Assembly: GCA_964401865.1 (NCBI GenBank)
Contig: CAYNZZ010000005.1
Span: forward strand, 58,848-90,847
From: an uncultured Erysipelotrichaceae bacterium
Lineage (GTDB): Bacteria > Bacillota_I > Bacilli_A > Erysipelotrichales > Erysipelotrichaceae
Reading direction: 5' to 3'
Length of the DNA stretch: 32,000 nucleotides
The position numbers and the translations under genes are program-made. Under the pieces are notes generated by a model that saw only the letters and a list, made by a program, of their open reading frames with translations, had not been told where the DNA came from and ran no database searches. This document shows positions 10,387-24,763 of the stretch, one piece after another; position 1 is the stretch's first letter, and each line of letters begins with the position of its first letter.

Positions 10387-11326
10387 TGAATTGCAAGGAC
10401 GAGTTTATGTTCATGAATTAAAAAACTACTTTCACTTTCGCCAGATAACTGGAAATGAAGAAAGTTTAAACCGTTGGATTATTGCTCCTGATATCAATAG
10501 ACCAGGTATGGAGCTTTCTGGCTTTACTATTCAAAACGACTTAAAACGTGTCGTATTGATGGGCAATAAAGAAATCACCTACTTAAATGCGATGTCAGAA
10601 GAAAAAAAGAATATCTGTTTTGATATAATTACCGATCCTTATACTCCGTGTATTATTTTTTCTCGAAATAATGAAATTCCTCAGAATTTAATCAATATCG
10701 CTAATCAGAAGAATTTTCCTATTTTTCAAACCGAAGAAAAAACTTATCGTGTATTGATTGATGTCGTATCTTTTTTAGAGCGTAAACTTGCAAAGTCGGA
10801 AACATTACATGGTGTTATGCTTTCAATATTTGGCATCGGTGTTTTGCTGACAGGTCAAAGTGGCATTGGTAAATCAGAACTGGCTTTAGAATTAATTAGT
10901 CGTGGGCATAGCTTGATTAGTGATGATAGAGTAGATATCATTCGTGCTCATAATGATTTGGTCTGCTTTGCACCTGATGTTATTAAAGGGATGTTAGAAA
11001 TTCGAGGTATTGGCATCGTTGATGTCGCGTTGATGTATGGGGCAGCCAGTGTCCTTGATTACGGTAGCCTTGATTTGGTTATTTCCTTACAGGCTTTTGA
11101 TGAAAATAAAGAATATAATCGCTTAGGAGCCAGAAATATGAAGTTTGAGAAGTTTGGCTTAGAAAAACCTTTACTGGAAATCCCTATCCGTGCTGGTCGT
11201 GCAATGTCTGTTATCGTTGAAGCGGCGGTAAAAAATCAACGTTTGCGCGAAAAAGGTATTGATAGTGGTTGGGAATTAAGACAAAGAGTATTAGAAGATA
11301 TTCAAAAGAAAGCGGGGCAACAATGA
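10373..11326 (+). CDS. hprK: HPr kinase/phosphorylase
   Basis: Walker A GQSGIGKSELALEL, then SDDRV and LEIRGIGIVDV motifs. GGAGG lies 5 nt upstream. It overlaps the uvrA end by 14 nt and ends in an ATGA overlap with the next gene. Confidence 0.93.
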   Translation: MSQSDELQGRVYVHELKNYFHFRQITGNEESLNRWIIAPDINRPGMELSGFTIQNDLKRVVLMGNKEITYLNAMSEEKKNICFDIITDPYTPCIIFSRNNEIPQNLINIANQKNFPIFQTEEKTYRVLIDVVSFLERKLAKSETLHGVMLSIFGIGVLLTGQSGIGKSELALELISRGHSLISDDRVDIIRAHNDLVCFAPDVIKGMLEIRGIGIVDVALMYGAASVLDYGSLDLVISLQAFDENKEYNRLGARNMKFEKFGLEKPLLEIPIRAGRAMSVIVEAAVKNQRLREKGIDSGWELRQRVLEDIQKKAGQQ

Positions 11327-12774
11327 AATTTTTTCCAAATTCAAAAACATTTTTAAGTGTTGGCAGCTTCAGTATTCAATGGTATGCAGTACTGATTTTA
11401 ACTGGCGCTATATTGGCATATATTTTGTGCAAAAGAAATACTCGTAAAATGAAATATCCCGATGAAATCATCGACGATTTCTTTATTGATGTATTATGGA
11501 TTGGGATCATTGGTGCACGTATATGGTATGTTTTATTTTCTGATTTATCATATTATCTAGCGGATCCCATTCGTATCTTTAAAATATGGGAAGGTGGATT
11601 AGCTATTCACGGTGGAGTTATCGCTGGTATTTTATATAGCTTATATTTTACTAAAAAAAGAGGAATTTCTTTTTACCGTTTGGCAGATGCCGTATTGCCT
11701 AATGTATTGCTTGCCCAAGCGATAGGAAGATGGGGGAATTTCGTCAATCAAGAAGCACATGGTCCAATGGTTGATGAGAGTTTCTATAATGGAATTTTAA
11801 GCTTTTTAAAAGAAGGCATGTGTATCAATGGTGTGTATTATGAACCAACTTTCTTCTATGAGAGCGTGATGAATATCATTGGTTTCTTGTTGATAATTTT
11901 GGTGTTGAAAAGATTTCAAAATAAACGTGGCGATTTAGCATATGCGTATCTGATGTGGTATGGAGCTGTTCGCATTTTTATTGAAAGTCTTAGGACTGAT
12001 GCACTGTATATCGGACCATTTAAAATTGCTCAGCTAACATCGCTTGTTTATATAGTGATAGGTGTTTTAGGTTATCTTGGAATTATCGACAAGCTATTTC
12101 ATATTAAGAAAAGAAAACCTACAATGCTGTTTGATTTAGATGGAACTTTACTTGACACTGAAAAAGGTATTCATGAAAGTTATAAATATGTTTTTAATAA
12201 ATATGGGGTTGAGTTTACTGAAGAAATGGAAATTGAGGTTTTAGGACCTTCACTTATGCATATATTTGAAAAGTATATTCCAAGTGTTGACACAAATATT
12301 TTGGTTGAAGAATATCGCAATCATAATAAAAAGATATTTTCTTCGGTCAATAAACCTATGGATAATGCCGGTATGATTTTAAAAACTTTGAAAGAAAATG
12401 GTTACCACGTCGGTGTTGTTTCTACTAAGATGCACGATACAGTTGAAGATAACTTAAAGCTATATGATTTAAATCAATATGTCGATGACATTATCGGTCG
12501 TGAAGATGTGGTAATGGATAAGCCAAATCCTGAAGGTATCAACAAAATTTTGAAAAAGAATTGTTGGCTAAGAGATGAACTTATCTATGTTGGGGATAGT
12601 TATACCGATGTTGAGGCAGGTAAAAATGCCGGAGCTTATACTGTTGCTTACTATTTCAATCCATTAAAGAAAGATAAGCTGAAAGCCGCTGGTGCTGATG
12701 AATATATTGATGATTTAAAAGATATCCTGCCAATTGTTGAAAAACCTATTCACTTTACTTATAACCAAAAATAG
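11323..12774 (+). CDS. lgt: Prolipoprotein diacylglyceryl transferase fused in frame to a PpaX-like HAD phosphatase
   Basis: The Lgt part (11323 to ~12120) carries WEGGLAIHGG and GRWGNFVNQEAHG. With no intervening stop, a HAD domain follows from 12124 (MLFDLDGTLLDTE, VSTK, GDSYTDVEAGKNAG). The tracked ORF start at 11269 lies inside hprK; the ATG at 11323 overlaps the hprK stop. Confidence 0.85.
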   Translation: MKFFPNSKTFLSVGSFSIQWYAVLILTGAILAYILCKRNTRKMKYPDEIIDDFFIDVLWIGIIGARIWYVLFSDLSYYLADPIRIFKIWEGGLAIHGGVIAGILYSLYFTKKRGISFYRLADAVLPNVLLAQAIGRWGNFVNQEAHGPMVDESFYNGILSFLKEGMCINGVYYEPTFFYESVMNIIGFLLIILVLKRFQNKRGDLAYAYLMWYGAVRIFIESLRTDALYIGPFKIAQLTSLVYIVIGVLGYLGIIDKLFHIKKRKPTMLFDLDGTLLDTEKGIHESYKYVFNKYGVEFTEEMEIEVLGPSLMHIFEKYIPSVDTNILVEEYRNHNKKIFSSVNKPMDNAGMILKTLKENGYHVGVVSTKMHDTVEDNLKLYDLNQYVDDIIGREDVVMDKPNPEGINKILKKNCWLRDELIYVGDSYTDVEAGKNAGAYTVAYYFNPLKKDKLKAAGADEYIDDLKDILPIVEKPIHFTYNQK

Positions 12775-12777
12775 AAA

Positions 12778-12820
12778 AAAGATGTAGCTAAGACATAAGT
12801 ACAAAGCTACATCTTTTAAT
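12778..12820 (+). terminator. Intrinsic terminator ending the uvrA-hprK-lgt transcription unit
   Basis: GATGTAGCT (12781-12789) pairs with AGCTACATC (12805-12813) and is followed by TTTTAATTTT. Confidence 0.75.
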
Positions 12821-12831
12821 TTTATAGGGCA

Positions 12832-12854
12832 TAAAAAAACACCAACACTGGTGT
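12832..12854 (-). terminator. Intrinsic terminator downstream of tRNA-Lys (minus strand)
   Basis: ACACCA (12839-12844) pairs with TGGTGT (12849-12854). On the minus strand the hairpin is followed by a T7 run (complement of the 12833-12839 A-run). Confidence 0.7.
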
Positions 12855-12866
12855 TATATATTCAAA

Positions 12867-12942
12867 TGGTGATCCCCTAGGGATTCGAACCCTAGACCCT
12901 CTGATTAAGAGTCAGATGCTCTACCAACTGAGCTAGGGGATC
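12867..12942 (-). tRNA. tRNA-Lys (anticodon CUU), CCA encoded
   Basis: The reverse complement reads GATCCCCTAGCTCAGTTGGTAGAGCATCTGACTCTTAATCAGAGGGTCTAGGGTTCGAATCCCTAGGGGATCACCA. It has a full cloverleaf and an anticodon loop CT-CTT-AA. Confidence 0.93.
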
Positions 12943-12954
12943 AGTTGCTAAATC

Positions 12955-12983
12955 ATTTTAGCACAATAAAATATTTAAAGCAA
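12955..12983 (-). promoter_or_regulatory. Promoter candidate for tRNA-Lys
   Basis: Minus strand: TTGCTT, 17 nt, TAAAAT, then GATTTAGCAACT immediately before the tRNA 5' end. Confidence 0.5.
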
Positions 12984-12984
12984 T

Positions 12985-13006
12985 AAAAAACTCGTCATAA
13001 GACGAG
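12985..13006 (-). terminator. Intrinsic terminator between tRNA-Glu and tRNA-Lys
   Basis: CTCGTC (12991-12996) pairs with GACGAG (13001-13006). On the minus strand the hairpin is followed by TTTTTT. Confidence 0.6.
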
Positions 13007-13017
13007 AAATTTACAAA

Positions 13018-13094
13018 TGGTGACTTGTACGGGATTCGAACCCGTGAATGCCGCCGTGAAAGGGCGGTGTGTTAAGCCGCTTCACCAACAAGCC
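13018..13094 (-). tRNA. tRNA-Glu (anticodon UUC), CCA encoded
   Basis: The reverse complement reads GGCTTGTTGGTGAAGCGGCTTAACACACCGCCCTTTCACGGCGGCATTCACGGGTTCGAATCCCGTACAAGTCACCA. The acceptor stem pairs with one G-U, and the anticodon loop is CT-TTC-AC. Confidence 0.9.
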
Positions 13095-13101
13095 ATCATA
13101 A

Positions 13102-13177
13102 TGGCGCCTAAAACAGGGCTCGAACCTGTGACCTAACGGTTAACAGCCGTTTGCTCTGCCAACTGAGCTATTTAGGC
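13102..13177 (-). tRNA. tRNA-Asn (anticodon GUU), CCA encoded
   Basis: The reverse complement reads GCCTAAATAGCTCAGTTGGCAGAGCAAACGGCTGTTAACCGTTAGGTCACAGGTTCGAGCCCTGTTTTAGGCGCCA, with anticodon loop CT-GTT-AA. Confidence 0.92.
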
Positions 13178-13188
13178 GTTGCTAAATT

Positions 13189-13217
13189 ATATTAGCATAA
13201 GCATTTTTATAATGCAA
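13189..13217 (-). promoter_or_regulatory. Promoter candidate for the tRNA-Asn/Glu unit
   Basis: Minus strand: TTGCAT (complement of 13212-13217), 17 nt, TAATAT (complement of 13189-13194), then AATTTAGCAAC before the tRNA-Asn 5' end. Confidence 0.55.
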
Positions 13218-13559
13218 GTGTTTTTTAGAAAATACTTTATTTAGGATATATTAGTTTAATAACATGAAAGCACCGCAAGAGAATAATAGACAGATAATAA
13301 TTATAACGATAGTTAGATTAAGAAAACTATTCATTCAATTACATGGATAAGCAAATTTATTGAAGAAAGTTTATTAATGCTTAAATTGTACATATTAAAT
13401 TATATGAAATAGTTTTTTAATATAAGGTATTTTTAATTCGGGGGATATTAAGTATATCTCCTTTATTTATAAGGTTTTCAGCCTTTATTGGTATTGGTAT
13501 ATATGGTAAATATGAATATAAGTATGCGTAGAGTCATATTTTTAAAGGTAATTTTTTCC

Positions 13560-15677
13560 ATGGCTACAACGGATGAATTGATAAAACAATTAAGAGATAG
13601 GGCTAAATCAGGCAAAAGAGGATCTAAAACTGCTGCGAAAGCCTTTGTAAAGGATGCTAAGCCTTTGACCGCTGAATTATGTGGCATTGAAGTTAAGTGT
13701 CCTAAATGCGGTTCTGACAATTATGTCAAAGATGGTGAAGGAAGATTTAAGTGTAAGGACTGTGGTAAGAAATTCAGATCTGCTTCTGGCTCTCTTTTAT
13801 CTGGATATGATTTCACTTTTGATGAATGGCTCAAAATAATTGATTGCGTATTATCAGGTAGAGAAAATTCTAAGTTTACTGGTGCTGTTAAATATTCTAT
13901 GAGTGCCAAGAAGGCCTGGCTTTTAAGAATGAAGATATTGAGTTCATTCTCAAGAATGCCTCAACCTGTTTTAAGCGGTATTGTTCAGGTGGATGGCACA
14001 TACTTTAGAGAAAGCCAAAAAGGATCAAGAAGCCTTAAATCCTTTGTAGGAGAAAACTATATCCGCAATCCTCGATATACTCATGAGCCATCTGTTACAG
14101 GTGCTAAAGGTCAGAAGTTTGTGTGTTGTGTTACAGGCATTGATAATTCAGGACATGTCTTTGCTAAATGTATGAGTTATGGAATGCCTGACTATGATGA
14201 CTTTGTAAAACTGTTAGACCAGCAGATTCAAACACCGCTTTATATAAGCTCAGATAATCTTGATTACTATGAAAGATATTGTGATGAGAAATGCTATCAG
14301 CACTATATAGAACCATCAACCTTCAAAAATGAGAAACTGTTTTATGGTTTTGTTGTCCAAAATGATAAATATCATCCATTACCATTAACTGATAAAGAAC
14401 TAAAGAATAACCAGAAAGTCCTTGAAACCATGTATTATGAGCGTTCAGGACCACATATAAGAAATGCTGGCAATATGACTTATGATGCCTTTAAACAGAT
14501 CGTTGATGGCTTAGGTCAAAAGTATTTCGGTCTTGAAAGAGTAAACCAGTTCCATGGAGATTTAAAAACTCTGGTCAATACTTCAGGGTGTGTTTCTTCT
14601 CGATACCTACAAGGATATGTATCAATGATGGCTTACATCAGAAACTTCAAGGTTGATAATGGCCATATTATCGGAACAGATTTAAATGATTACGAGGTAG
14701 TCTTTAAGGATATCTTGAAATACTACGATTATGACTACTTCAAAAATGAGTTCATGGCTGATAAAAGAAATATCGAATTAAGAGGCAGACTGAACCACGA
14801 AAAGGAAAAAGCTATTAAAAAGGCAACTGGCCTATACTCAATAAACAAAGATGCTTTTGACAGTAATAGTGTTCAGGAGATGCCCGACATCTTTAATAAA
14901 AGAAGATGCTTCAGAGAAATGAAACCACATCGTATCAACTACCTTTGTGATTATTTCAAAATAGATACCAACATCCCGAAAACCAAAAAGTGTGATGCTT
15001 TAGCTAATCTTCCTAATGCCGATGAAATAATCTTCAGAGAGATCAAACTGCTCTACTTTGCAGAAGAAGATGAGGTCTTGGAAGCTATTAAAGATGGTTT
15101 TCTTGAAAACCCCGACAAGAAAAGAGTTGGAAGACCTAAGGGCATAAAGAAAAATCTCACCCTGACGGATGAGGAGTTAAATAGACTTAAAGGCCTTAAG
15201 AAAGCTGTATTTGATATTGAGACAACAGGTCTTGATAAAAACAATGATGAAATACTATCATTATCGATTATTGATGGTGATGGGAATGTACTGTTTGATA
15301 AACTGTTCAAACCACTACACAGAAAGAAATGGACAAGAGCGGCACAGGTAAACAACATCACATATGATCAGGCAGATAAGGAAAAGCCTTTCTCTTTCTA
15401 CAAAGACAAGATCCAGAAGATCTTTGACGAAGCTGAGCTTCTTATTGCCTACAATAATCCTTTTGATGTCTCTTTCTTGGAAGTTAACGGTATAGACCTT
15501 TCCGGCAAGGAACAATTTGATGTCATGGCCAAGTTCGGCGAAATACTTAAAGATGGTAGAAAACACAAATTAGCCTATTGTGCTGACTGGTATCGATTCA
15601 ATTGGCAAGAAGATCAACACACATCATTAGGAGATGTTAAGGCCACTTTGTATTGTTTTAATGAGATGGTCAAATAG
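13560..15677 (+). CDS. Fusion protein: IS1595-type (ISXO2-like) zinc-ribbon/DDNK transposase domain plus C-terminal DEDDh (DnaQ-like) 3'-5' exonuclease
   Basis: Zinc ribbon CPKC-x14-CKDCGKKF (13698-13763), followed by SGSLLSGYDFTFDEWLKII. DDE-like core: VQVDGTYF (D at 13992), YISSDNLDYY (D at 14253) and ERVNQFHGDLK (N, then K at +7). Linker KKRVGRPKGIKK (15117-15152). Exonuclease motifs: FDIETTG, AYNNPFDVSFL and HTSLGDVKAT. The start is taken at the Met of MATTDELIKQL; the tracked ORF starts at 13488. Confidence 0.75.
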   Translation: MATTDELIKQLRDRAKSGKRGSKTAAKAFVKDAKPLTAELCGIEVKCPKCGSDNYVKDGEGRFKCKDCGKKFRSASGSLLSGYDFTFDEWLKIIDCVLSGRENSKFTGAVKYSMSAKKAWLLRMKILSSFSRMPQPVLSGIVQVDGTYFRESQKGSRSLKSFVGENYIRNPRYTHEPSVTGAKGQKFVCCVTGIDNSGHVFAKCMSYGMPDYDDFVKLLDQQIQTPLYISSDNLDYYERYCDEKCYQHYIEPSTFKNEKLFYGFVVQNDKYHPLPLTDKELKNNQKVLETMYYERSGPHIRNAGNMTYDAFKQIVDGLGQKYFGLERVNQFHGDLKTLVNTSGCVSSRYLQGYVSMMAYIRNFKVDNGHIIGTDLNDYEVVFKDILKYYDYDYFKNEFMADKRNIELRGRLNHEKEKAIKKATGLYSINKDAFDSNSVQEMPDIFNKRRCFREMKPHRINYLCDYFKIDTNIPKTKKCDALANLPNADEIIFREIKLLYFAEEDEVLEAIKDGFLENPDKKRVGRPKGIKKNLTLTDEELNRLKGLKKAVFDIETTGLDKNNDEILSLSIIDGDGNVLFDKLFKPLHRKKWTRAAQVNNITYDQADKEKPFSFYKDKIQKIFDEAELLIAYNNPFDVSFLEVNGIDLSGKEQFDVMAKFGEILKDGRKHKLAYCADWYRFNWQEDQHTSLGDVKATLYCFNEMVK

Positions 15678-15871
15678 TTCTAAGATAAATAGACTATAGA
15701 CAAAACTTATATAATATTATTGAGAGATAAATTTTAATTTTATTCGTTAACAGGTATGTGAAAAATGCTTGTAAAAAGCTTTGGACATTGCCAAAAGGGG
15801 CCATTGTCAAACCACTTTGATAGCGAAATGAACAGACTTTGATTAGGATATGCTTACAAGGAGGTGACGAG

Positions 15872-16458
15872 ATGGAACTCGGAAAGCGAATTAGGAAATA
15901 TCGTCAGGAAGCATAATTATCTCAAGAGGATCTTTCAAGTCGAGTTTACGTATCCAGACAGACAATCTCAAATTGGGAGAATGATAAGAGTTATCCGGAT
16001 GTAAGCAGCTTGGTTTTGCTGAGTGAAATCTTTCAAATCTCACTTGATGAACTGATTAAAGGAGATATTGAAACTATGAAAGAGGTTATCAAAAAAGAAG
16101 AAATCGAAAAAATGAATCGCTATGGAGTTATTTATACCTTGCTGTTAATAGCGACAGTTGTGTTGGCAGTTCCACTGTTCATGTGGCTTGGTCATTGGGC
16201 AATGATTCCATGGGGAATGATTTTTGCTTGCGCAATGGTTTATGCTTTTAAAATCGAAAAAGTGAAGAAAGGTAATGATGTGCATACATACAGAGAAATT
16301 GTCGCCTTCTCAGAAGGTAAACTGCTGGATGACATTCAAAAACAGCGTGAGATTGGCAAGCGCCCTTATCAGAGGTTACTTTGGTGGTTGGCTGCGCTGT
16401 AATATCTTTTGTGGCGTGTGTTCTCATCGGTCTTATAATGAATCTCTTTTTAAACTAA
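15872..16458 (+). pseudogene. XRE-family HTH regulator with C-terminal membrane segments, disrupted by a nonsense codon and a probable frameshift
   Basis: AAGGAGGTG RBS, then the ATG at 15872. Translation: MELGKRIRKYRQEA-TAA(15914-15916)-LSQEDLSSRVYVSRQTISNWENDKSYPDVSSLVLLSEIFQISLDELIKGD, a canonical HTH_3 domain. It is in the same frame as tracked ORF 16010..16402. After ~16370 a different frame encodes a clean TM helix (VTLVVGCAVISFVACVLIGLIMNLFLN, ending at 16458), which suggests a 1-nt indel. Confidence 0.7.
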
Positions 16459-16533
16459 ATTTAATGCGTTAAATCTTAGGTCAATCGTTCATTTTGATTG
16501 AGAGATATATCATAATTTGTTGGAGGACACAAA

Positions 16534-16938
16534 ATGAAAAAATTAATATCCATAGTCATTTGCATTGTTGTTGTTTTATCGCTGACTGCCTGTGGCGGAA
16601 GTATCAAAGAGGCAAAAACTCATGATGTTGAGTCTGAAATGTACACCAAGGAAGATATCACATCGGCTATTGAAACTATAAAGAAAGAATTTAAGAGCAA
16701 CTGGGAAGGATGTTCCTTAAAAGAAATTTATTATGCAGGTGATGATATCGTAAAAGCCCATTAGGATTGGGCGGACAGAAACAATGCAGATGAGGTAATT
16801 GTTTTATTATCCTCCTATTATGTGGGACCTAACGGTGGGGATGGTTCTCTAAATCAGGATTACACATATACGAATTGGAACTGGATTTTAGTAAGAACAA
16901 GTGGTGGAAAATGGGTTCACGTTGACCATGGTTACTAA
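16534..16938 (+). pseudogene. Small lipoprotein interrupted by an in-frame TAG
   Basis: Lipobox VVVLSLTAC. The ORF stops at TAG (16762-16764), but the same frame continues as DWADRNNADEVIVLLSSYYVGPNGGDGSLNQDYTYTNWNWILVRTSGGKWVHVDHGY, ending at TAA (16936-16938). This tail looks coding. Confidence 0.6.
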
Positions 16939-16950
16939 TACAAATCTTAA

Positions 16951-17415
16951 TTTATTATCGCACCGTTGATCGAGTTTCTTTCAAATGGCGCTGGACCGGG
17001 ACTGACCGTAAATAAGATCTCTACATTCGATACGACCATCGATGGGTTTAAGAGCGAAAAAGTTGTAATCGAAAATGCAGATGAGATCAATCAGATCGGA
17101 TGCTGGACTTCACGGATCGAATATAATATTATGGATGATGTTAAAGTACTTGAAATCGAGGTGGAGATCCCTGAAGACTATAAACTGGTAACGCACATCT
17201 TTGATGAAGAACTTTACAAAGAAGATAAAGTAATCACTGAAACAGTCCTTAATCTATACTCTTATCTCAGGTGTGGCGGTCCCCTTGATGCGTATAATTC
17301 TCTGATATCTCATTTAAAGTAAGGGAAAATCATCGACTTTGAAAATGTCAATCGTGCAGGAACTGTTAAGATAACTTTATCCAAGGAAACATTCGATCGG
17401 CTTACTCTTAAATAA
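16951..17415 (+). pseudogene. Probable 5'-truncated gene remnant with an in-frame TAA
   Basis: Tracked ORF 16966..17322 begins at TTG and has no RBS or ATG. After TAA (17320-17322) the same frame continues for 30 codons (GKIIDFENVNRAGTVKITLSKETFDRLTLK). I recognise no family. Confidence 0.3.
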
Positions 17416-17481
17416 ATACATGTAAACGATATTTTATTAAAAATGCGGTAGAATGTTTTCTGTTCATGAAGGGAGTTCATA

Positions 17482-18069
17482 ATGGCTGATTTTACAACTA
17501 AAGCTATCAAAGAAGCCTATAAGAATCTGCTGGAAGAAAGGTCTGTCAGTAAGATAACAGTAAAGGATGTCTGTGAATGCTGTGGCATCCATAAAAATAC
17601 ATTCTATTATCATTTTGAAGATCTGCCTCATCTGCTAGAAGAAATCATGATCGCTTACGCCGACGAATTCATCGCTCAGTATCACGACATCAGTACCATC
17701 AATGACTGTATCGATTCTTTACAGAACTTCATCAAAAGCAATATCAAGGTCATTCGTCATATCATTGACTCAGGTAGCTACTCAGAAGCATTCCACAAGC
17801 TGTTATGGAAAATCTGTGAACATGTTTCTGATGAATATTCAGAACTCTTCGTCTCTAAAGAGCTGTTGAGTGAAGATAATCGCGAACTGCTTAAACATTC
17901 AATAAAATGCGAACTTTATGGTTATGCGGCCGATTGGATCTACACCGGCATGAATGGAAATCGGACCTATGACCTTATGAAACTCCATGAGGTTAAAAAG
18001 AGAGTCCTTGATAATATAAGCGAGAACCATGAGAAACTTCAGAACAGCGATCATATCGATCAGCAATAA
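17482..18069 (+). CDS. TetR/AcrR-family transcriptional regulator
   Basis: N-terminal HTH ITVKDVCECCGIHKNTFYYHFEDLPHLLEEI, typical of TetR regulators (the DhaS-like subgroup). GGGAG RBS 8 nt upstream. Confidence 0.85.
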   Translation: MADFTTKAIKEAYKNLLEERSVSKITVKDVCECCGIHKNTFYYHFEDLPHLLEEIMIAYADEFIAQYHDISTINDCIDSLQNFIKSNIKVIRHIIDSGSYSEAFHKLLWKICEHVSDEYSELFVSKELLSEDNRELLKHSIKCELYGYAADWIYTGMNGNRTYDLMKLHEVKKRVLDNISENHEKLQNSDHIDQQ

Positions 18070-18103
18070 AAACTAACATAACTATCGTCATTTAGACAGA
18101 TTT

Positions 18104-18134
18104 AGCCATGTGTACATATTTTGTGCTCATGGCT
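18104..18134 (+). promoter_or_regulatory. Inverted repeat between the TetR and MMPL genes (operator or weak terminator/attenuator)
   Basis: AGCCATG (18104-18110) pairs with CATGGCT (18128-18134), extendable imperfectly (AGCCATGtGtAC / GtGcTCATGGCT), and is followed by ATTTTTA. Confidence 0.35.
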
Positions 18135-18212
18135 ATTTTTACCTAATGAATAGCATTTTTAGCCGTAATAAGATTAGGAAGATAAAAGTAATATCCCAAA
18201 GGAGGGAGCGCT

Positions 18213-20282
18213 ATGAAATTTTCAAAATCGGTCGTAAAAAACCGCAAAATGATCCTCATCATTACGCTCATTCTGCTGATCCCATCAGTATTTGGCTACT
18301 TTGGCACCCGTGTAAACTACGATATGCTGACATACCTGCCAAGTGAAATGGATACAACGATCGGTCAGGAAGAGCTGATGAATGACTTCCATAAAGGAGC
18401 CTACGCCCTGATCGTTACTGAAAATATGGGTCAAACTGAGATCGCTGATCTGCAGAAAAGACTTGAAAAAATCGATCATGTAACTACTGTTATTGGCTAT
18501 GGCTCGCTTAATAATGGCCAAGTTCCTCTTGAACTGCTGCCTGAAAAACTGACAAAAGAATTCTATAAAGATGACGCTTCGATCATTGCCGTCTTCTTAG
18601 ATTCATCAACATCTGCCGACGTGACGATGGATGCCATCCGTGAGATGCGCAAAGTCTGCGGAAATAAATGTTTCGTTTCATCACTATCGTCGATGGTTAC
18701 TGACCTCAAAGATCTGTGCGAAAGAGAAGAGCCGATCTATGTGGGTATCGCTGTTGTTTTGAGCTTAGTAGCGATGGTGTTGCTACTTGATTCCTATCTG
18801 GCTCCATTCATCTTCTTATTGAGTATTGGTATGATGATCATCTTAAATCTTGGTACCAACTACTTCTTAGGTGAAGTATCCTACATCACCAAAGCTTTAT
18901 CAGCCGTCTTACAGTTAGCTGTAACCATGGATTACTCAATTTTCCTGTGGCACAGCTATAACGAACAGCTTAGCAAGAACAGTGATAATATTAGCGCTAT
19001 GGAAGAAGCAATCACACAGACCATCACTTCGGTTGTGGGCTCATCGATCACAACGGTTGCTGGCTTCATCGCTCTATGCTTTATGAGCTTTACATTAGGC
19101 AAAGACTTAGGAATCGTCATGGCTAAAGGCGTAGTGCTGGGTGTTATTGGCTGCGTTACTGTATTGCCGACCTTGATCCTGCTGTTTGATAAGGCGTTAC
19201 AAAAGACAAAACATCGAGCTCTCATTCCGGACATGAGTTCCATATCAAAAGGCATTGTCTCTAAATCACTGTTATTTATTCTGATTTTCCTGATTGCGCT
19301 TTATCCATCGATCTATAGCTACCGCAAAGCTAACAGTGAGGTCTATTTCAATCTGCAGGCAACGATGCCGGAGGATATGGACTTTGCTGTCGCTAACCGG
19401 AAACTGCAGGAAGATTTTGATATTGCTTCTACACATTTGCTGCTTGTCGACGCCAGCCTAGATGCCAAAGCTACAAAACAACTGGCTAAAGAAATGGAAG
19501 AGGTCGTCGGCATTAAATATGTGCTGGGGCTTGATGCGCTGACTGGCGGTCAGATTCCAGACGAGCTGATACCCGTCTCACTTAAGGCGGATCTGGAATC
19601 TGATAAATGGCAGCTACTGCTGATCAACTCGGAATATGGCGTCGCAACAGATGAGGTAAATGAACAGATTGATGAACTCAATCAGATCTTAAAGAAATAT
19701 GATCAGACCGGCATGCTGATAGGTGAAGCACCATGTATGAAAGACATGATCGAAGTTACCAACAAAGACTTCTCAGTCGTTAGTGCAGTCTCGATCGTTC
19801 TGGTCTTCCTTATTATTGCGCTGGTTGAAAAGAGCTTCTCTTTACCGTTCATTCTTATTAGCGTCATCGAATTTGCGATCTTTATCAATCTAGGTATGCC
19901 ACATTGGCTGCATCAGTCAATGCCATTCATTGCGCCAACCTGTGTTTCAACGATTCAGTTGGGTGCGACTGTCGATTACGCGATTCTGATGACAACACGT
20001 TACAAGAGCGAACGCTTGGCAGGACTTGATAAAAACGAGGCTGTAGCCAAGGCTCTGAGCACTTCGATCCCATCGATCATAGTTTCCAGTTTTGGTCTGT
20101 TTATGGCGACATTTGGCGTAGCGTTCTATTCAGAGATCGACATTATAAAGTCGATCTGTACGCTTATAGCTCGTGGCGCACTGATCTCAATGGGTTGCGT
20201 CGTGCTGGTACTTCCAGCATTGCTAGTCGTCTTTGACCATCTGATCGCCAGAACGACACTTGATATGCGAAAGACCAGATAA
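18213..20282 (+). CDS. MMPL-family (RND superfamily) membrane transporter
   Basis: 689 aa. Two repeated halves, each a TM helix, a large extracytoplasmic loop and a 5-TM bundle (e.g. LQLAVTMDYSIFLWHSY and IQLGATVDYAILMTTRY). AGGAGGGAG RBS. Confidence 0.85.
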   Translation: MKFSKSVVKNRKMILIITLILLIPSVFGYFGTRVNYDMLTYLPSEMDTTIGQEELMNDFHKGAYALIVTENMGQTEIADLQKRLEKIDHVTTVIGYGSLNNGQVPLELLPEKLTKEFYKDDASIIAVFLDSSTSADVTMDAIREMRKVCGNKCFVSSLSSMVTDLKDLCEREEPIYVGIAVVLSLVAMVLLLDSYLAPFIFLLSIGMMIILNLGTNYFLGEVSYITKALSAVLQLAVTMDYSIFLWHSYNEQLSKNSDNISAMEEAITQTITSVVGSSITTVAGFIALCFMSFTLGKDLGIVMAKGVVLGVIGCVTVLPTLILLFDKALQKTKHRALIPDMSSISKGIVSKSLLFILIFLIALYPSIYSYRKANSEVYFNLQATMPEDMDFAVANRKLQEDFDIASTHLLLVDASLDAKATKQLAKEMEEVVGIKYVLGLDALTGGQIPDELIPVSLKADLESDKWQLLLINSEYGVATDEVNEQIDELNQILKKYDQTGMLIGEAPCMKDMIEVTNKDFSVVSAVSIVLVFLIIALVEKSFSLPFILISVIEFAIFINLGMPHWLHQSMPFIAPTCVSTIQLGATVDYAILMTTRYKSERLAGLDKNEAVAKALSTSIPSIIVSSFGLFMATFGVAFYSEIDIIKSICTLIARGALISMGCVVLVLPALLVVFDHLIARTTLDMRKTR

Positions 20283-20294
20283 GGAGGGAATGAT

Positions 20295-22280
20295 ATGAAT
20301 ATTAGAAATAAAGTAATTATTGGCATAACAGGTCTGCTGGTACTAACAGGCTGTGCCAATGTAAATAAAAAAGATGAAGCCATTATCGCTCCAGTCACAA
20401 GTGAGAGTGAAAAGATCGTCTTAAGTGAAGATGGTGCAAATGAAGATATCATCTACATCATGCAGAACAGCGACGGCTCGCTTGATAAAGTCATGGTACC
20501 TGATAGTATAAAGAACAAGCTTATAGATAACAGTGGTACCGTTTCATCCTTTAAGATCACCGATATTGAAGGTAAAGAATTTGCCTATGCAGGAACATAT
20601 GAAAACGCAGTACCGGTAAGCGTCACTTATAGCTATTATCTGAATGGCAATAAACTTACTTATGAAGAATGCGAGGGCAAAAACGGTCACTTAATGCTGG
20701 TAATTTCTTACGACAATGCGACTGTTGATAAAATCAACAAGACTTGCGTACCATTCGCAATGGCATCAGTGATAAGTCTTGATGATTCATTTACAAATGT
20801 GGAAGTCGAAGGCGGAAAACTGCTGGAAAACGGCAACTTAACGATGGTTGCTGGACTTGCGATCCCTGGAATGAAAGAGTGCTTTGGCACTGATATTAAA
20901 GACGATGTGATCATTGAAGCTGACGTTAAAAACTTTAAACTTGAAAACATCTACACTATCGCAACAAGACTTGATTTGAATGATCTCGATTCAAAGAAGA
21001 TTGAAAACAAACTTAATGAACTCTACTCATCAATGACTGATCTTGATGACGCTATGAAGCAGTTAAAAGATGGCACCAGACAGCTGGATGCTGGTGCTGT
21101 AACTCTGAAGGATGGAGCCAATGAGCTTAGCAAGGGTCTGAGTCAGCTTTCTGCTAATTCAGGAGCTTTAAATGCTGGCTCTAAACAGGTCTTTGAATCT
21201 TTGCTGGCAACTGCGACTTCAACGATTAAGGGAAATGGCTTGGATATTCCAGCTCTGACGATCGCAAATTATGGCGATGTTTTAAAAGCGACAATTGATT
21301 CTTTGGATAAGGATAAAGTATATTCACAAGCCTACTCTCAGGTAAGAGCGGTAATTGAAGCTAATTATAAGGAACAGATCGTAAGTGCTGTAACAGACAC
21401 AGTTCAAGCTAATGTAGAGTTGCAGGTGACACAAGCTGTTAATGCTCAATATGAAGCAGCAGTAAAAGAGGCGGTAAGCGCTCAGGTTTTAGCGAACGAA
21501 GAACAGATAAGAATGGCCGTAACGCAAACTGTTAAAAGTCAGGTAGAGTCAGAGGTTAAAGCAGCGGTGCTTGAAGCTAAAGGTTTGAATGAAGAAGCTT
21601 ATATTGCATTAGACGATGAAACAAAAGCACTCATCGATTCTGCGATCGCTAATAATGTCGAAGATAAGATGGTAAGTGATGAGATCAAGACCTTGATTGC
21701 TTCTAATACAAATGAACAGATAGAATTGCTGATTGAAAAGACGACTGCTGAAACATTGGCTGAAAAACAGAAAGAGATTGCGCAGGTTATTATGGTTAAA
21801 ACGGCTGAACAGATGGCAAGCGATGATGTTAAAAATATCATAGCTGAAAATATTGAAGCTCAGATCAAATCTCAGACTGAAAACTATATCGCTAATGACC
21901 CAGATATTCAGATTAAATTTGAGGCTGCAGCTGAAGGAATCAAGCAGCTTCAAGGCGTTCTAGCACAGCTTGATGCTTACAACAGTTTCTATGTTGGTTT
22001 AAAGACTTATACTGATGGCGTCGATGCAGCGTATGCGGGTTCAAAGAAATTATCAGCCGGAGTCGATAAGCTTAAAGATGGAGCGAAGGAACTTCTGGAT
22101 GGCGTTGAAAAGTTCGATAGTGAGGGTATTCAGAAACTTATTGATACTGTTGATAGTGAACTCAAACCATTACAGAACCGTTTCAATACGATCAGAAAAC
22201 TGTCTGGAACTTATCGACCATTTAGTGATGTAAGCACTGAGATAGATGGTTCAATCAAATATGTTTTCTGCGCTAGATAA
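20295..22280 (+). CDS. Lipoprotein with YhgE/Pip-like N-terminal domain and Leu/Gly heptad-repeat and coiled-coil region
   Basis: Lipobox GLLVLTGC. LKDGTRQLDAGAVTLKDGANELSKGLSQLSANSGALNAGSKQ and the C-terminal LSAGVDKLKDGAKELLDGVEKF resemble the X-X-X-Leu-X-X-Gly heptads of YhgE/Pip proteins. A central Ala/Val/Gln-rich repeat reads AVTDTVQANVELQVTQAVNAQYEAAVKEAVSAQV. There is no C-terminal TM bundle. Confidence 0.6.
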   Translation: MNIRNKVIIGITGLLVLTGCANVNKKDEAIIAPVTSESEKIVLSEDGANEDIIYIMQNSDGSLDKVMVPDSIKNKLIDNSGTVSSFKITDIEGKEFAYAGTYENAVPVSVTYSYYLNGNKLTYEECEGKNGHLMLVISYDNATVDKINKTCVPFAMASVISLDDSFTNVEVEGGKLLENGNLTMVAGLAIPGMKECFGTDIKDDVIIEADVKNFKLENIYTIATRLDLNDLDSKKIENKLNELYSSMTDLDDAMKQLKDGTRQLDAGAVTLKDGANELSKGLSQLSANSGALNAGSKQVFESLLATATSTIKGNGLDIPALTIANYGDVLKATIDSLDKDKVYSQAYSQVRAVIEANYKEQIVSAVTDTVQANVELQVTQAVNAQYEAAVKEAVSAQVLANEEQIRMAVTQTVKSQVESEVKAAVLEAKGLNEEAYIALDDETKALIDSAIANNVEDKMVSDEIKTLIASNTNEQIELLIEKTTAETLAEKQKEIAQVIMVKTAEQMASDDVKNIIAENIEAQIKSQTENYIANDPDIQIKFEAAAEGIKQLQGVLAQLDAYNSFYVGLKTYTDGVDAAYAGSKKLSAGVDKLKDGAKELLDGVEKFDSEGIQKLIDTVDSELKPLQNRFNTIRKLSGTYRPFSDVSTEIDGSIKYVFCAR

Positions 22281-22656
22281 CTTAAAGCGAATATGAATAA
22301 AAGGGGTTGTAACCAAATCTAAAATTAGGAAGAGCGTTACAACTCTTTTTATATCCATGAATTAAAAAAGCCCAAGGAATCGAACCTGGGATGTTGTTAA
22401 AGCATATACTGCAAAATTTGAAAAAGGAAGATGCGACATTACCGGCAATATTGTGCCTTGCGGTTCCGGGCATTGTTATGGCAAAAGCACGTAATATGGT
22501 GAGAACATTGTACCTTCAGCAAAACATATAGGAGAAACAAATTTTAGTTCGACCGCTCAATCAAAGAAATAAAAAAGTAAATATTTAATCATGGTCGAGG
22601 CATTAAAACAGATTGCTTCGGCTTTTGTTTTAGATTTGCTTATAATTGGTCAACAA

Positions 22657-22709
22657 AAAATTACCCTTCGAAATGTAACTCTACGCACACTTATTTTAAG
22701 GGTAATTTT
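22657..22709. repeat. Perfect 12-bp inverted repeat with a 29-nt spacer
   Basis: AAAATTACCCTT (22657-22668) and AAGGGTAATTTT (22698-22709) are exact reverse complements. Confidence 0.8.
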
Positions 22710-22873
22710 CAATTTGCATTATAAATAAAGGGTTTCCGCATCCCTAAAATGGAAATATCTTATTTTAATAAGTAAAAATTGATCATTTCTATTTTTATCT
22801 TTTGTATAATGTAAAATATTTACAATGAAAATGATGAAATATATTACATTTTGTGAAAAAGTTTTAAAAAATA

Positions 22874-22902
22874 TTTACAATCGCTTTCAAACATAGTATA
22901 TT
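22874..22902 (+). promoter_or_regulatory. Promoter candidate for the peptide ABC transporter operon
   Basis: TTTACA (22874-22879), 17 nt, TATATT (22897-22902), about 34 nt upstream of the ATG at 22936. A duplicated copy of the -35 module lies 55 bp upstream. Confidence 0.45.
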
Positions 22903-22935
22903 TTTTTGTATATAAATAAAAAAGGGGGAGCAAAT

Positions 22936-23877
22936 ATGAAGAAGTATATTACCAAAAGACTCATCATGATGGTAATACTTTTGCTAGGAATGACATTTAT
23001 AGTGTTTTCAAGTCTATATCTAGCGCCAGGAGATCCGGCGGAAATAGCAGCAGGTGCTAGTGCGACAGAAGCAGAAATCGAGGCAATGAGAGAGTATTTA
23101 GGATTAAATAGACCATTCTTGGTACAGTATGGCACTTATTTAGTTAATTTATTACATGGTGATCTTGGAACTTCGTATATTACTCGTCAGCCAATATTAG
23201 ATGAATTATTAATCAGATTACCAAATACTCTTAACTTAGCAGTATCGAGTATGATATTCGCTTGCATTATCGGTATTCCACTCGGTGTAATTGCTGCTAT
23301 CAAGAAAGATTCGATTCTTGACAACTTGCTAACAACTGTTTCACTATTTGGTATCTCGGTTCCTAATTTCTGGTTAGGTTCAATTCTTATCATTGTATTC
23401 TGTGTACAACTGAAAATATTCCCTACCGGAGGAATGAGTGAACCATTCTGGACGGCTACCGGCTTCAAACAAGCTTTCTTGCCTTCGTTATCACTTGGTA
23501 TGCAAGTGGCAGCTAGTTTTATGAGAATTGGTCGTTCTAGTATGCTTGATGTACTACAATCAGATTACATCAGAACCGCAAGATCGAAAGGCTTAAAAGA
23601 AAAGAGTATTATTGTAATACACGCCTTAAAGAATGCAATGATACCTATCTTAACGCAAATGGGTACAAGTTTTGGTGGTTTGCTTGGTGGTTCAATGGTT
23701 ACCGAACAGGTATTTGCAATCAATGGTATTGGTTCATACTTGATTAATGCGATTAACCAAAGAAATTACTCAGCCGTACAAAGTACAGTATTTGTTATTG
23801 CATTTATGTTTGTTATTGTGAATTTAGTGGTCGATTTATTGTATAGCGTTATCGATCCTAGAATTCGCTATGAATAG
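22936..23877 (+). CDS. Peptide ABC transporter permease (OppB/DppB-like)
   Basis: AAGGGGGAG RBS before the ATG at 22936. The N-terminus ITKRLIMMVILLLGMTFIVF..LAPGDPA and the DYIRTARSKGL EAA-loop motif are typical of Opp/Dpp B-type permeases. Confidence 0.9.
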   Translation: MKKYITKRLIMMVILLLGMTFIVFSSLYLAPGDPAEIAAGASATEAEIEAMREYLGLNRPFLVQYGTYLVNLLHGDLGTSYITRQPILDELLIRLPNTLNLAVSSMIFACIIGIPLGVIAAIKKDSILDNLLTTVSLFGISVPNFWLGSILIIVFCVQLKIFPTGGMSEPFWTATGFKQAFLPSLSLGMQVAASFMRIGRSSMLDVLQSDYIRTARSKGLKEKSIIVIHALKNAMIPILTQMGTSFGGLLGGSMVTEQVFAINGIGSYLINAINQRNYSAVQSTVFVIAFMFVIVNLVVDLLYSVIDPRIRYE

Positions 23878-23890
23878 GAGGCAGTTATAG

Positions 23891-24763
23891 ATGAAAAAAA
23901 TGAATCCCATAACAACTGCCTTTCGCAAGTTGTTTAAAAATAAACTAGCTACAATTTGTTTTTTCTTAATCATTATTGAACTTACTATCGTAATATTCGC
24001 ACCGATGTTTACAAGTTATGATCCAATAGCTATGGACCCATCAATTCGTCTTAAACAAGGTTTTTGGGCGATAGGCACTGATAAGTATATTGCTGGGCAT
24101 TGGCTTGGAACTGACGAACTAGGCCGTGATGTATGGTCAAGAATTATATATGGTGGTCGTATTTCTTTGTCGGTTGGTTTTATCTCTACAACAATCGGTT
24201 TGATTTTCGGAACATTCTTCGGATTATTAGCCGGTTACTATAAAAAACTTGACAACATTATTATGAGAATAATGGATATCTTATTTACTTTCCCTGGAAT
24301 ATTGTTAGCTTTATTGATAGTTGCGATGTTAGGTGTCAATGTAATGAATGCCACAATTGCAATCAGTATCTGGTCGATACCTAGTTTCGCTAGAATGATT
24401 AGAGGTAGGGTTTTACAGATTAAAGAAGAAGAATATATTACCGCAATACGTTCTTTAGGAGCATCGGATTTTTGGATATTGACAAAGCACGTTTTGATCA
24501 ATGCTTTGCCAACTATCATTGTTATCGCTACAATGCGTATTGCCAGTTCAATTTTGTCGATTGCGACATTAAGTTATTTAGGTCTAGGCGTTCCACAACC
24601 AACACCGGAGTGGGGCGGTATGATATCATCAGCTAAAGCAGTAATGTATGACGCTAGTTACCTCATCTTTATCCCGGGTATCGCGGTTGTCATAACTGTA
24701 ATTTGTTTCAACATTTTAGGGGATAAATTGCGTGATATTCTAGACCCAAGTTTAAAAGATTAA
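23891..24763 (+). CDS. Peptide ABC transporter permease (OppC/DppC-like)
   Basis: HWLGTDELGRDVWSRIIYGGRISL and EEYITAIRSLGAS motifs are typical of C-type permeases. Confidence 0.9.
   Translation: MKKMNPITTAFRKLFKNKLATICFFLIIIELTIVIFAPMFTSYDPIAMDPSIRLKQGFWAIGTDKYIAGHWLGTDELGRDVWSRIIYGGRISLSVGFISTTIGLIFGTFFGLLAGYYKKLDNIIMRIMDILFTFPGILLALLIVAMLGVNVMNATIAISIWSIPSFARMIRGRVLQIKEEEYITAIRSLGASDFWILTKHVLINALPTIIVIATMRIASSILSIATLSYLGLGVPQPTPEWGGMISSAKAVMYDASYLIFIPGIAVVITVICFNILGDKLRDILDPSLKD

Follow-up and report, generated by a model that had tools for sequence, protein, structure and literature searches.

The window analysed here is a 32-kb stretch of DNA from an uncultured Erysipelotrichaceae bacterium (contig CAYNZZ010000005.1), for whose chromosome the nearest reference is an uncultured Bulleidia metagenome-assembled genome (MAG; L006, 97%). 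Between a tRNA-Lys/Glu/Asn cluster and an opp operon, at an AT-rich site, it carries a gene that joins an IS1595-like transposase to a predicted DEDDh 3'-5' exonuclease in one open reading frame (ORF), and this gene stands first among those of a 9,340-bp transposon, 13423–22762 (Table 1). The frame is stop-free from 13488 to 15677 on the plus strand, and the ATG at 13560, the start codon conserved across the family alignment, opens a protein of 705 residues. The single uninterrupted frame of 705 codons given in a preliminary description is therefore confirmed and recurs in independent assemblies, and the zinc ribbon, DDNK core, basic linker and three exonuclease motifs all lie where that description had placed them.

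Table 1. Features of the transposase-exonuclease gene and of the element that carries it; coordinates are those of the 32-kb window.
Feature	Coordinates	Strand	Basis or remark
Target-site duplication, left copy, TTTTAATA	13415-13422		identical 8-mer outside both termini
Left terminal inverted repeat TAAGGTATTTTTAATTCGGGGGAT... with terminator-like hairpin (13440-13462), then TTTATTTATAA box	13423-13470	+	
Inner inverted repeat, left arm, adjoining the start codon	13515-13557	+	43 nt, 84% complementary to 22655-22697
Transposase-exonuclease gene, 705 aa	13560-15677	+	ORF, profiles, alignment, model
Zinc ribbon CxxC-x14-CxxC, C47/C50/C65/C68	13698-13763	+	Cys conservation; weak Zn_ribbon_IS1595 and IS1_IS1595_Zn profile matches
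RNase H-fold DDE-type core, D145/D195/D232/N329/H332/K336	13971-14579	+	NF033547, model, Foldseek, conservation
Helical C-terminal extension, common to exonuclease-less ∼535-aa relatives	14592-15098	+	alignment; helices at residues 350-511 in model
Disordered basic linker containing KKRVGRPKGIKK	15099-15161	+	pLDDT <50, residues 514-534
Predicted DEDDh 3'-5' exonuclease domain, D552/E554/D636/H687/D692	15198-15674	+	RNase_T above gathering score; TM 0.81 to Pol III epsilon
XRE/HTH (helix-turn-helix)-type membrane-anchored regulator, pseudogene	15873-16402	+	in-frame premature stop, ...RKYRQEA-stop-LSQEDLSSRVYVSRQTISNWEN...
Small lipoprotein-like ORF	16534-16764	+	no significant Pfam match; kept in all strains
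118-aa ORF	16966-17322	+	no significant Pfam match; kept in all strains
TetR-family regulator	17482-18069	+	TetR_N 4.2e-5
MMPL-family transporter	18213-20282	+	MMPL 2.5e-50; GC-richer stretch
661-aa protein, function unassigned	20295-22280	+	GC-richer stretch
Inner inverted repeat, right arm	22655-22697	-	pairs with 13515-13557
Right terminal inverted repeat, degenerate, reverse complement TAAGATATTTCCATTTTAGGGATGCGGAAACCCTTTATTTATAA	22719-22762	-	9/10 first bases as in left end; CCTTTATTTATAA box
Target-site duplication, right copy, TTTTAATA	22763-22770		perfect match to left copy

Of 63 family members, 62 or 63 keep each of the four zinc-ribbon cysteines. Within the DDE-type core, D145 is found in VQVDGTY, D232 in YISSDN and N329, H332 and K336 in VNQFHGDLK; in the ISfinder description, D, D and N or E with a lysine about seven residues further downstream is the spacing diagnostic of IS1595. 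D145 and D232 are conserved in 25/26 fused proteins and N329 in 24/26, each of the three positions is kept in at least 34 of 37 related proteins that lack the exonuclease, and K336 is looser in both groups (20/26 and 30/37, respectively). The best annotated match to this half of the protein, in a tblastn search, is ISSag10 (5e-16, 32% identity over residues 47–242), with ISCaje5 also found (8e-13), and a Foldseek search with the N-terminal ∼450 residues matched the ISCth4 DDE transposase. Profile models for both halves had been expected to match, and for the exonuclease this held, RNase_T scoring above its cut-off; for the transposase, the NCBIfam model transpos_IS1595 (NF033547) was significant (4.9e-19) but at 69.1 bits lay under its curated cut-off of 75, while Pfam PF12762 (DDE_Tnp_IS1595; 17 versus 27 bits) and, at the correct position, the zinc-ribbon profiles PF12760 (18.3 versus 25.4 bits) and NF050000 (25.2 versus 28) were sub-threshold. 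As the IS1595 profile scores fall below the curated cut-offs, the protein is to be regarded as a divergent IS1595-like transposase and not as a textbook member. The basic stretch KKRVGRPKGIKK that follows the helical extension occupies residues 520–531 (15117–15152). Its GRP, likened in the preliminary description to an AT-hook, is present in the window linker; a conserved AT-hook as a feature of the family was rejected, however, with GRP in only 6/14 aligned window-clade sequences and in a disordered region.

The C-terminal domain is matched by Pfam RNase_T over residues 550–700 (9.3e-14, 52.7 bits against a cut-off of 24), by PHROG 192 'DNA polymerase exonuclease subunit' (7e-26) and by the Cas-associated DEDDh model of PADLOC (1e-24). 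D552 and E554 lie in DIETTG, D636 in NPFD, and H687 and D692 in HTSLGD, and these five catalytic residues are invariant in 23/23 fused proteins and kept in 88–89 of 89 free-standing relatives. Modelled by AlphaFold2 from the family alignment, the protein reaches a mean predicted local distance difference test (pLDDT) score of 79, with the core β strands above 85 and a confident C-terminal domain. Foldseek returned many DEDDh matches to this domain at a probability of 1.00, including Pol III epsilon (2ido; template modelling (TM) score 0.81, root-mean-square deviation 2.6 Å), the PolC exonuclease and the Cas2-fused DnaQ, with RNase T, TREX and ExoX nearly as good. By its residues the DEDDh domain is catalytically complete, and it is predicted to be a 3'-5' exonuclease.

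That PolC and Pol III epsilon proofreading domains, which have the same DEDDh fold and catalytic motifs, are the top sequence and fold matches could mean that the domain is a replication-coupling or proofreading module, engaging the replisome or editing the 3' primer terminus in replicative (copy-in/copy-out) transposition; this would also be in line with the replicative excision through a circle that has been proposed for IS1595-family relatives (PMC5704250). However, any DEDDh fold would show such likeness to epsilon, and the window domain, unlike its epsilon and PolC counterparts, is not part of a polymerase and scores far below the family cut-offs (45.9 versus 1043 bits for polC; 21–28 versus 196–245 bits for the epsilon models). 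The protein also ends directly after the Exo III helix, so that there is no epsilon-like polymerase-binding C-terminal tail. We consider such a replicative role very unlikely.

The transposase-exonuclease fusion recurs in at least 40 protein clusters from at least three deep clades, down to 26% identity. A first search gave 14 clusters of ∼700-residue fused proteins (38–99% identity) together with ∼535-residue relatives that end before the exonuclease, and an index-free search added fused proteins of 711–1001 residues at 26–34% identity, with a C-terminal RNase_T domain in 10/10 of those scanned against Pfam. The second clade comprises at least 20 clusters, with one NCBI deposit, from an Atopobiaceae MAG, labelled only '3'-5' exonuclease'. 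Scans of IMG/VR and JGI metagenome contigs gave no fused relatives, an exact-pattern scan of viral contigs did not find the terminal repeat, and annotated plasmid and phage collections hold only the separate halves of the fusion. A phage origin was rejected, phage records having given only generic exonuclease and ISSag10-like matches.

Two split genes bear on whether the fusion could be an assembly or sequencing artefact that joins adjacent genes: in the P0012 element (contigs L102 and L103) the exonuclease is in a separate, overlapping frame, and the gene of strain L081 is split. Because a single frame recurs in independent assemblies, many samples and at least 40 diverged clusters, a frameshift artefact does not account for the fusion; a stop or frameshift separating two ordinary genes is seen in these exceptions, which look like frameshift decay, and the probability of an artefact is negligible. 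In the P0012 element (654–2782) the transposase occupies 654–2267 and the exonuclease ORF 2249–2782, with an overlap of ∼18 nt, and the split frame is identical in two samples. It is probably the result of frameshift decay in the A-rich linker, although programmed frameshifting, as in IS1 and IS3, may be the alternative.

The preliminary description reported neither terminal inverted repeats (TIRs) nor an 8-bp duplication around the gene, and put it at the edge of a compositionally foreign island. Both repeats exist, 9.3 kb apart, with TTTTAATA flanking 13423–22762 as a target-site duplication (TSD), and the GC-richer island (GC content 0.40–0.45 versus ∼0.33 in the flanks) is the cargo of the gene's own transposon. 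An 8-bp duplication is typical of the IS1595 family (PMC8101967); the 8-mer itself has only eight occurrences on the plus strand of the window. The left terminus, which precedes the ATG by 136 bp, can be aligned with the left end of a related element (P0003, contig L095) as mapped from its junctions, and the left-end pattern TAAGGTATTNNNAATYCGGGG has one match in the window and none in 100 shuffles. The right terminus ends at 22762 (reverse complement TAAGATATTTCC...), and the two 140-nt ends, aligned globally, score 35 compared with 3.5 ± 9.4 for shuffles. Both ends are three-part, inverted and ∼135 bp long. The 43-nt inner inverted repeat, the longest within 12700–24000, has counterparts in L095 and L108; by itself it is not convincingly above chance, its blastn-short score equalling the best of 60 shuffles, and it is meaningful only because it is combined with a homologous terminus, a common box and the TSD. 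The homologous left end, the inverted right end and the identical flanking 8-mers therefore define the element as 13423–22762. A minimal insertion sequence (IS) ending near 15868, at the end of contig L001, was also considered and rejected, as nothing there resembles a terminal repeat.

Both ends carry an inward-facing terminator-like hairpin followed by a T-rich box (13440–13470 and 22719–22745; the left hairpin was found by a terminator scan), which reads GGGGGAT...ATCTCC TTTATTTATAA on the left and, reading inward, GGGATGCGGAAACCC TTTATTTATAA on the right. The left end of the L095 element has a similar hairpin with another loop. These hairpins probably protect the element against read-through transcription; scanned for promoters, the left end did no better than shuffles. 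The left end lies 245 bp from tRNA-Asn (13177–13423), and in L108 a tRNA 3' end (GGTTCAAATCC...CCA) lies ∼60–110 bp from the right terminus (about 17700–17760). Such tRNA adjacency of two fused-family elements from different clades (n = 2) may reflect chance or target preference.

Evidence for mobility comes from the relatives, whose flanks, as had been suggested, allowed the ends to be mapped and TIRs and TSDs to be recognised. An identical P0003 protein was found in more than one setting, with two alternative flanks on the left and two on the right, and its junctions are sharp (left TAAGGTATTACGAATCCGGGGGAT..., right ...ATCCCCGAATTCGTAATACCTTA; TAAGGTATTACGAAT...ATTCGTAATACCTTA), delimiting in L095 an element of 3,279 bp with ∼24-bp TIRs. 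The P0014 element (L002; 7,386 bp) is bounded by perfect 24-bp TIRs and the TSD TCTTTTTT, adjoins alternative left flanks in other samples, and carries a DpnII-type restriction-modification (R-M) system and a Flg_new surface protein. L101 holds a whole element of about 5.0 kb with the same type of ends and an HpaII R-M system with Vsr, and L108, from clade 2, an element of 7,843 bp with 14-bp perfect TIRs, an inner inverted repeat adjoining the ATG, and a GmrSD/HNH nuclease with three methylases. TIRs are found in the window, L095, L101, L002 and L108, around a single transposase gene with passenger genes, and 8-bp TSDs were verified for two fused elements (window and L002). The gene very probably encodes a genuine transposase, belonging to an element that is mobile or was so recently. 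Within the L002 element, a 1,001-bp segment (13064–14064) between 17-bp inverted repeats CTCAATGGAAAGTCAAT is inverted relative to L003, L004 and L005 and overlaps the 3' end of the Flg_new gene; it looks like a shufflon-like switch of the protein C-terminus, carried as transposon cargo.

The ∼535-residue exonuclease-less relatives occur in Clostridia, Streptococcus and Fusobacteria at 26–35% identity, with the zinc ribbon, the core (QVDxTFxRESQK, D-D-N-H-K) and the helical extension in common. Among 72 reference-genome loci scanned, they form TIR-bounded elements of 2.2–12 kb with cargo, many with clean 8-bp TSDs (at least eight loci), and with termini different from those of the fused elements (e.g. 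CCTATAACTC..., TTATATAGTCC...). Their cargo consists mostly of surface proteins and enzymes. A whole 2,511-bp contig (L027, 1–2511) of the isolate assembly of Clostridium lacusfryxellense DSM 14205 is one such element from TIR to TIR (TTATATACGGTA...), as expected of a multi-copy IS collapsed in assembly. Transposition is thus a property of the family as a whole, and since the exonuclease-less relatives are transposons too, the exonuclease would be an accessory and not part of the core chemistry.

Free-standing homologues of the exonuclease, of 175 residues and 40–42% identity, are found on Firmicutes plasmids (L105, 5834–7108, Enterococcus cecorum pEC67; L104, 5995–6522, Clostridium perfringens), one of them in an apparent operon with DUF3970 and a small serine recombinase, and a further relative, P0070, is fused to a ParB_N domain. 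As judged from their sequences, these homologues mark a promiscuous DEDDh module tied to mobile elements. Fused and unfused proteins interleave in rough, distance-based neighbour-joining trees, and the window-clade exonuclease is nearer to free-standing plasmid/phage-type ones (42–49%) than to those of distant fused clades (26–32%). Either the fusion would be ancient, with repeated loss, or the module would have been captured more than once.

In our view, and with moderate confidence, the whole is best explained as a cargo transposon of the IS1595 family in which a nuclease tethered to the transposase processes 3' ends. In such an element the zinc ribbon and helical region would presumably recognise the three-part ends, the DDN(K)-type RNase H-fold core, judged by homology and element anatomy, cleaves the 3' ends and transfers them into a target cut with an 8-bp stagger, and the flexible basic linker, whose disorder in the model fits a tethered module, would hold the DEDDh exonuclease close to the transposase. 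The exonuclease would then act in cis at the transpososome as an accessory, on free 3'-OH ends produced by transposition. Candidate substrates are the 3' ends of the target once strands have been transferred, that of the donor flank if the reaction is copy-out, and 3' overhangs or flaps on an excised or circular form; trimming or resection would allow the intermediate to be completed, or replication or repair to be primed. The exonuclease is intact, conserved and tethered, yet absent from transposition-competent sisters, so it would be an accessory acting at the transposase's DNA, and end trimming or resection is favoured because free 3'-OH ends are natural DEDDh substrates. That it works on transposition intermediates is put forward tentatively, as a closely balanced proposal.

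Several observations weigh against this account. We know of no IS1595 transposition step that needs a 3'-5' exonuclease, the sister elements transpose without one, and the 10 kb around them hold no exonuclease gene. Although both domains were modelled and their folds matched, the AlphaFold2 model is uninformative on the relative orientation of the two active sites and hence on whether they face a common DNA path, as had been asked at the outset. Among the fused relatives, pairing flanks across contigs found no TSD for the L095 element, where the metagenome contig may be chimeric across copies, and the flank repeat of L108 is only 6 bp (GGTAGA on both sides). No empty site was found: metagenome contigs gave no match to a pattern joining the two flanks, searches for exact copies of the neighbouring HPr kinase and OppC proteins led only to element-bearing contigs from near-identical strains, and of the sister-species orthologous loci one contig stops after lgt and the other holds a different mobile element. 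The window copy itself is at the same site in 16/16 close-strain contigs examined, its right end is degenerate and in strain L081 its transposase gene is frameshifted; this copy may no longer be mobile. Finally, restriction or defence genes are cargo in 4/7 fused elements (DpnII-type, HpaII with Vsr, EcoRV-type, and GmrSD/HNH with three methylases).

The fixed site and degenerate terminus would suit an immobilised, domesticated transposase-nuclease used by the Bulleidia host in repair, recombination or exclusion. Selection could be read in the same way, as the ratio of nonsynonymous to synonymous polymorphism (pN/pS) of the transposase ORF is 0.15–0.25 against the two most diverged variants, with 13 nonsynonymous and 16 synonymous differences compared with a neutral expectation of ∼4:1 (binomial p = 2.8e-5). 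However, purifying selection over a short divergence can also reflect recent activity, and in strains that are all as nearly identical as these, fixation is weak evidence. TIRs and an intact TSD, which a domesticated copy should have lost, remain around the window copy, its relatives are clearly mobile, the frameshift in L081 has no apparent consequence, and a cargo gene has a premature stop. The window copy is thus an old, possibly immobile insertion with a transposase that is still constrained; given the single fixed site and the purifying selection, a host-beneficial role of this copy keeps a small probability, and domestication is improbable. Of the three readings offered in the preliminary description, a transposon type equipped with an exonuclease is the one favoured here; domestication and a repair or recombination enzyme are disfavoured, because the relatives sit in TIR/TSD-bounded elements with varied cargo and flanks.

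The cargo raises another possibility, that the exonuclease serves the element in conflict with its host or with competing DNA and is fused only for co-expression; it could degrade restricted or foreign DNA ends, aid the establishment of R-M cargo or counter host defence. Restriction or defence cargo is more frequent in the fused than in the exonuclease-less elements (4/7 versus 1/∼14), the closest free-standing exonuclease relatives (40–49%) are small genes on plasmids and phage-like contigs, and the top PADLOC match is the Cas-associated DEDDh model. Against this, the window, L095 and L100 elements have no recognisable defence cargo, the cargo sample is small and phylogenetically non-independent, and a covalent fusion kept over such divergence argues for action at the transposase's DNA. 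We regard a role in conflict as unlikely.

If the exonuclease does process 3' ends at the transpososome, a distinct pathway can be envisaged. DDE transposases usually need host functions or a second nuclease, such as TnsA, for the strand that they leave uncut. After nicking and transfer by the DDE core, the exonuclease would cut back the strand with the free 3'-OH at the junction, on either the donor-flank or the target side. A nick-only reaction (replicative or prone to cointegrates) would then yield a gapped intermediate, to be resolved by the host into a simple insertion or a circle. TnsA of Tn7 would be its functional counterpart, and the solution may have arisen independently in several IS1595-like clades and in KolobokD. 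This scheme is possible, though on the unlikely side.

Full-text searches of the literature on IS1595 exonucleases and transposase-DEDDh fusions found no bacterial case, and eukaryotic KolobokD is the only precedent. As far as the literature and annotated collections show, the preliminary description was right that an exonuclease had not been reported for any IS1595 member. Cargo-carrying IS1595 elements, by comparison, are already known; as far as the literature shows, it is the group with the IS1595 transposase-DEDDh fusion that is undescribed in bacteria. Known cargo-carrying ('+') IS1595 subgroups likewise combine a single transposase gene with passengers, and MTnSag1 is an IS1595-family cargo element with the ISSag10 transposase, 25-bp TIRs, 8-bp direct repeats and a circular intermediate (PMC5704250). 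MTnSag1 and tISCpe8 resemble the window element in belonging to Firmicutes, in having a zinc-ribbon and DDE transposase as first gene, and in carrying passengers between ∼25-bp TIRs with an 8-bp duplication, but their transposases have no annotated exonuclease, whereas the window protein of 705 residues has a ∼170-residue helical extension and the DEDDh domain. Window-type ends are also three-part (about 135 bp) and the cargo is larger (3–9 kb). The transposases of MTnSag1 and tISCpe8, like usual IS1595 transposases, are ∼300 residues long, so that 705 residues is twice the usual length.

KolobokD elements of animals are DDD/E transposons with a DEDDh exonuclease that has been proposed to degrade DNA intermediates from the 3' end (PMC9587614). 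They are thus another transposon lineage that additionally encodes a DEDDh (DnaQ-like) exonuclease, but they are eukaryotic, belong to another transposase superfamily, use a TREX/ERI1-type exonuclease and have no homology-based link to the bacterial fusion, and there too the role is a proposal. In the Cas2-DnaQ of type I-E CRISPR adaptation, a DEDDh domain is similarly tethered to a DNA-integration machine, and its structure (8h18) is among the top fold matches. In that system the integrase is Cas1 and not a DDE transposase, and there is no CRISPR context in the window; the analogy is functional only. The Cas2-DnaQ exonuclease trims 3' overhangs of the substrate before integration, and the role favoured for the window exonuclease would resemble this trimming and agrees with the proposal made for KolobokD.

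Among the other genes of the window element, the XRE-type regulator has its premature TAA at 15914–15916 (MELGKRIRKYRQEA before the stop and LSQEDL... after it), and the stop seems to be species-wide because gene calls in other strains begin downstream. Near the right end of the cargo, GCCCAAGGAATCGAACCTGGGATG at 22366–22395 resembles a minus-strand tRNA T-arm, where ARAGORN calls no tRNA; it may be a remnant of the cargo's former context. Upstream of the element, 11323–12774 encodes a prolipoprotein diacylglyceryl transferase (Lgt) fused to a HAD-family phosphatase in one 483-residue protein, an architecture kept across Erysipelotrichaceae relatives in more than 100 clusters. In a sister species (L107, 11487–21452; Lgt 76% identical), the site downstream of lgt holds another element with a large serine recombinase, Rep_trans and ABC transporters, and the region downstream of lgt therefore seems to be an insertion hotspot.

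If the proposed role is correct, the fused exonuclease points to an unrecognised end-processing step in IS1595/Merlin-type transposition. The fusion is kept to about 26% identity, may have been captured on more than one occasion and is paralleled in KolobokD. With elements of small size and defined ends and TSDs, the role of the exonuclease is directly testable, and a compact integrase with a built-in end-trimming nuclease may interest those who build tools for DNA insertion. Fused elements move R-M and other defence genes, transporters and surface proteins among gut Firmicutes and Actinomycetota, and are thus relevant to the spread of defence islands.

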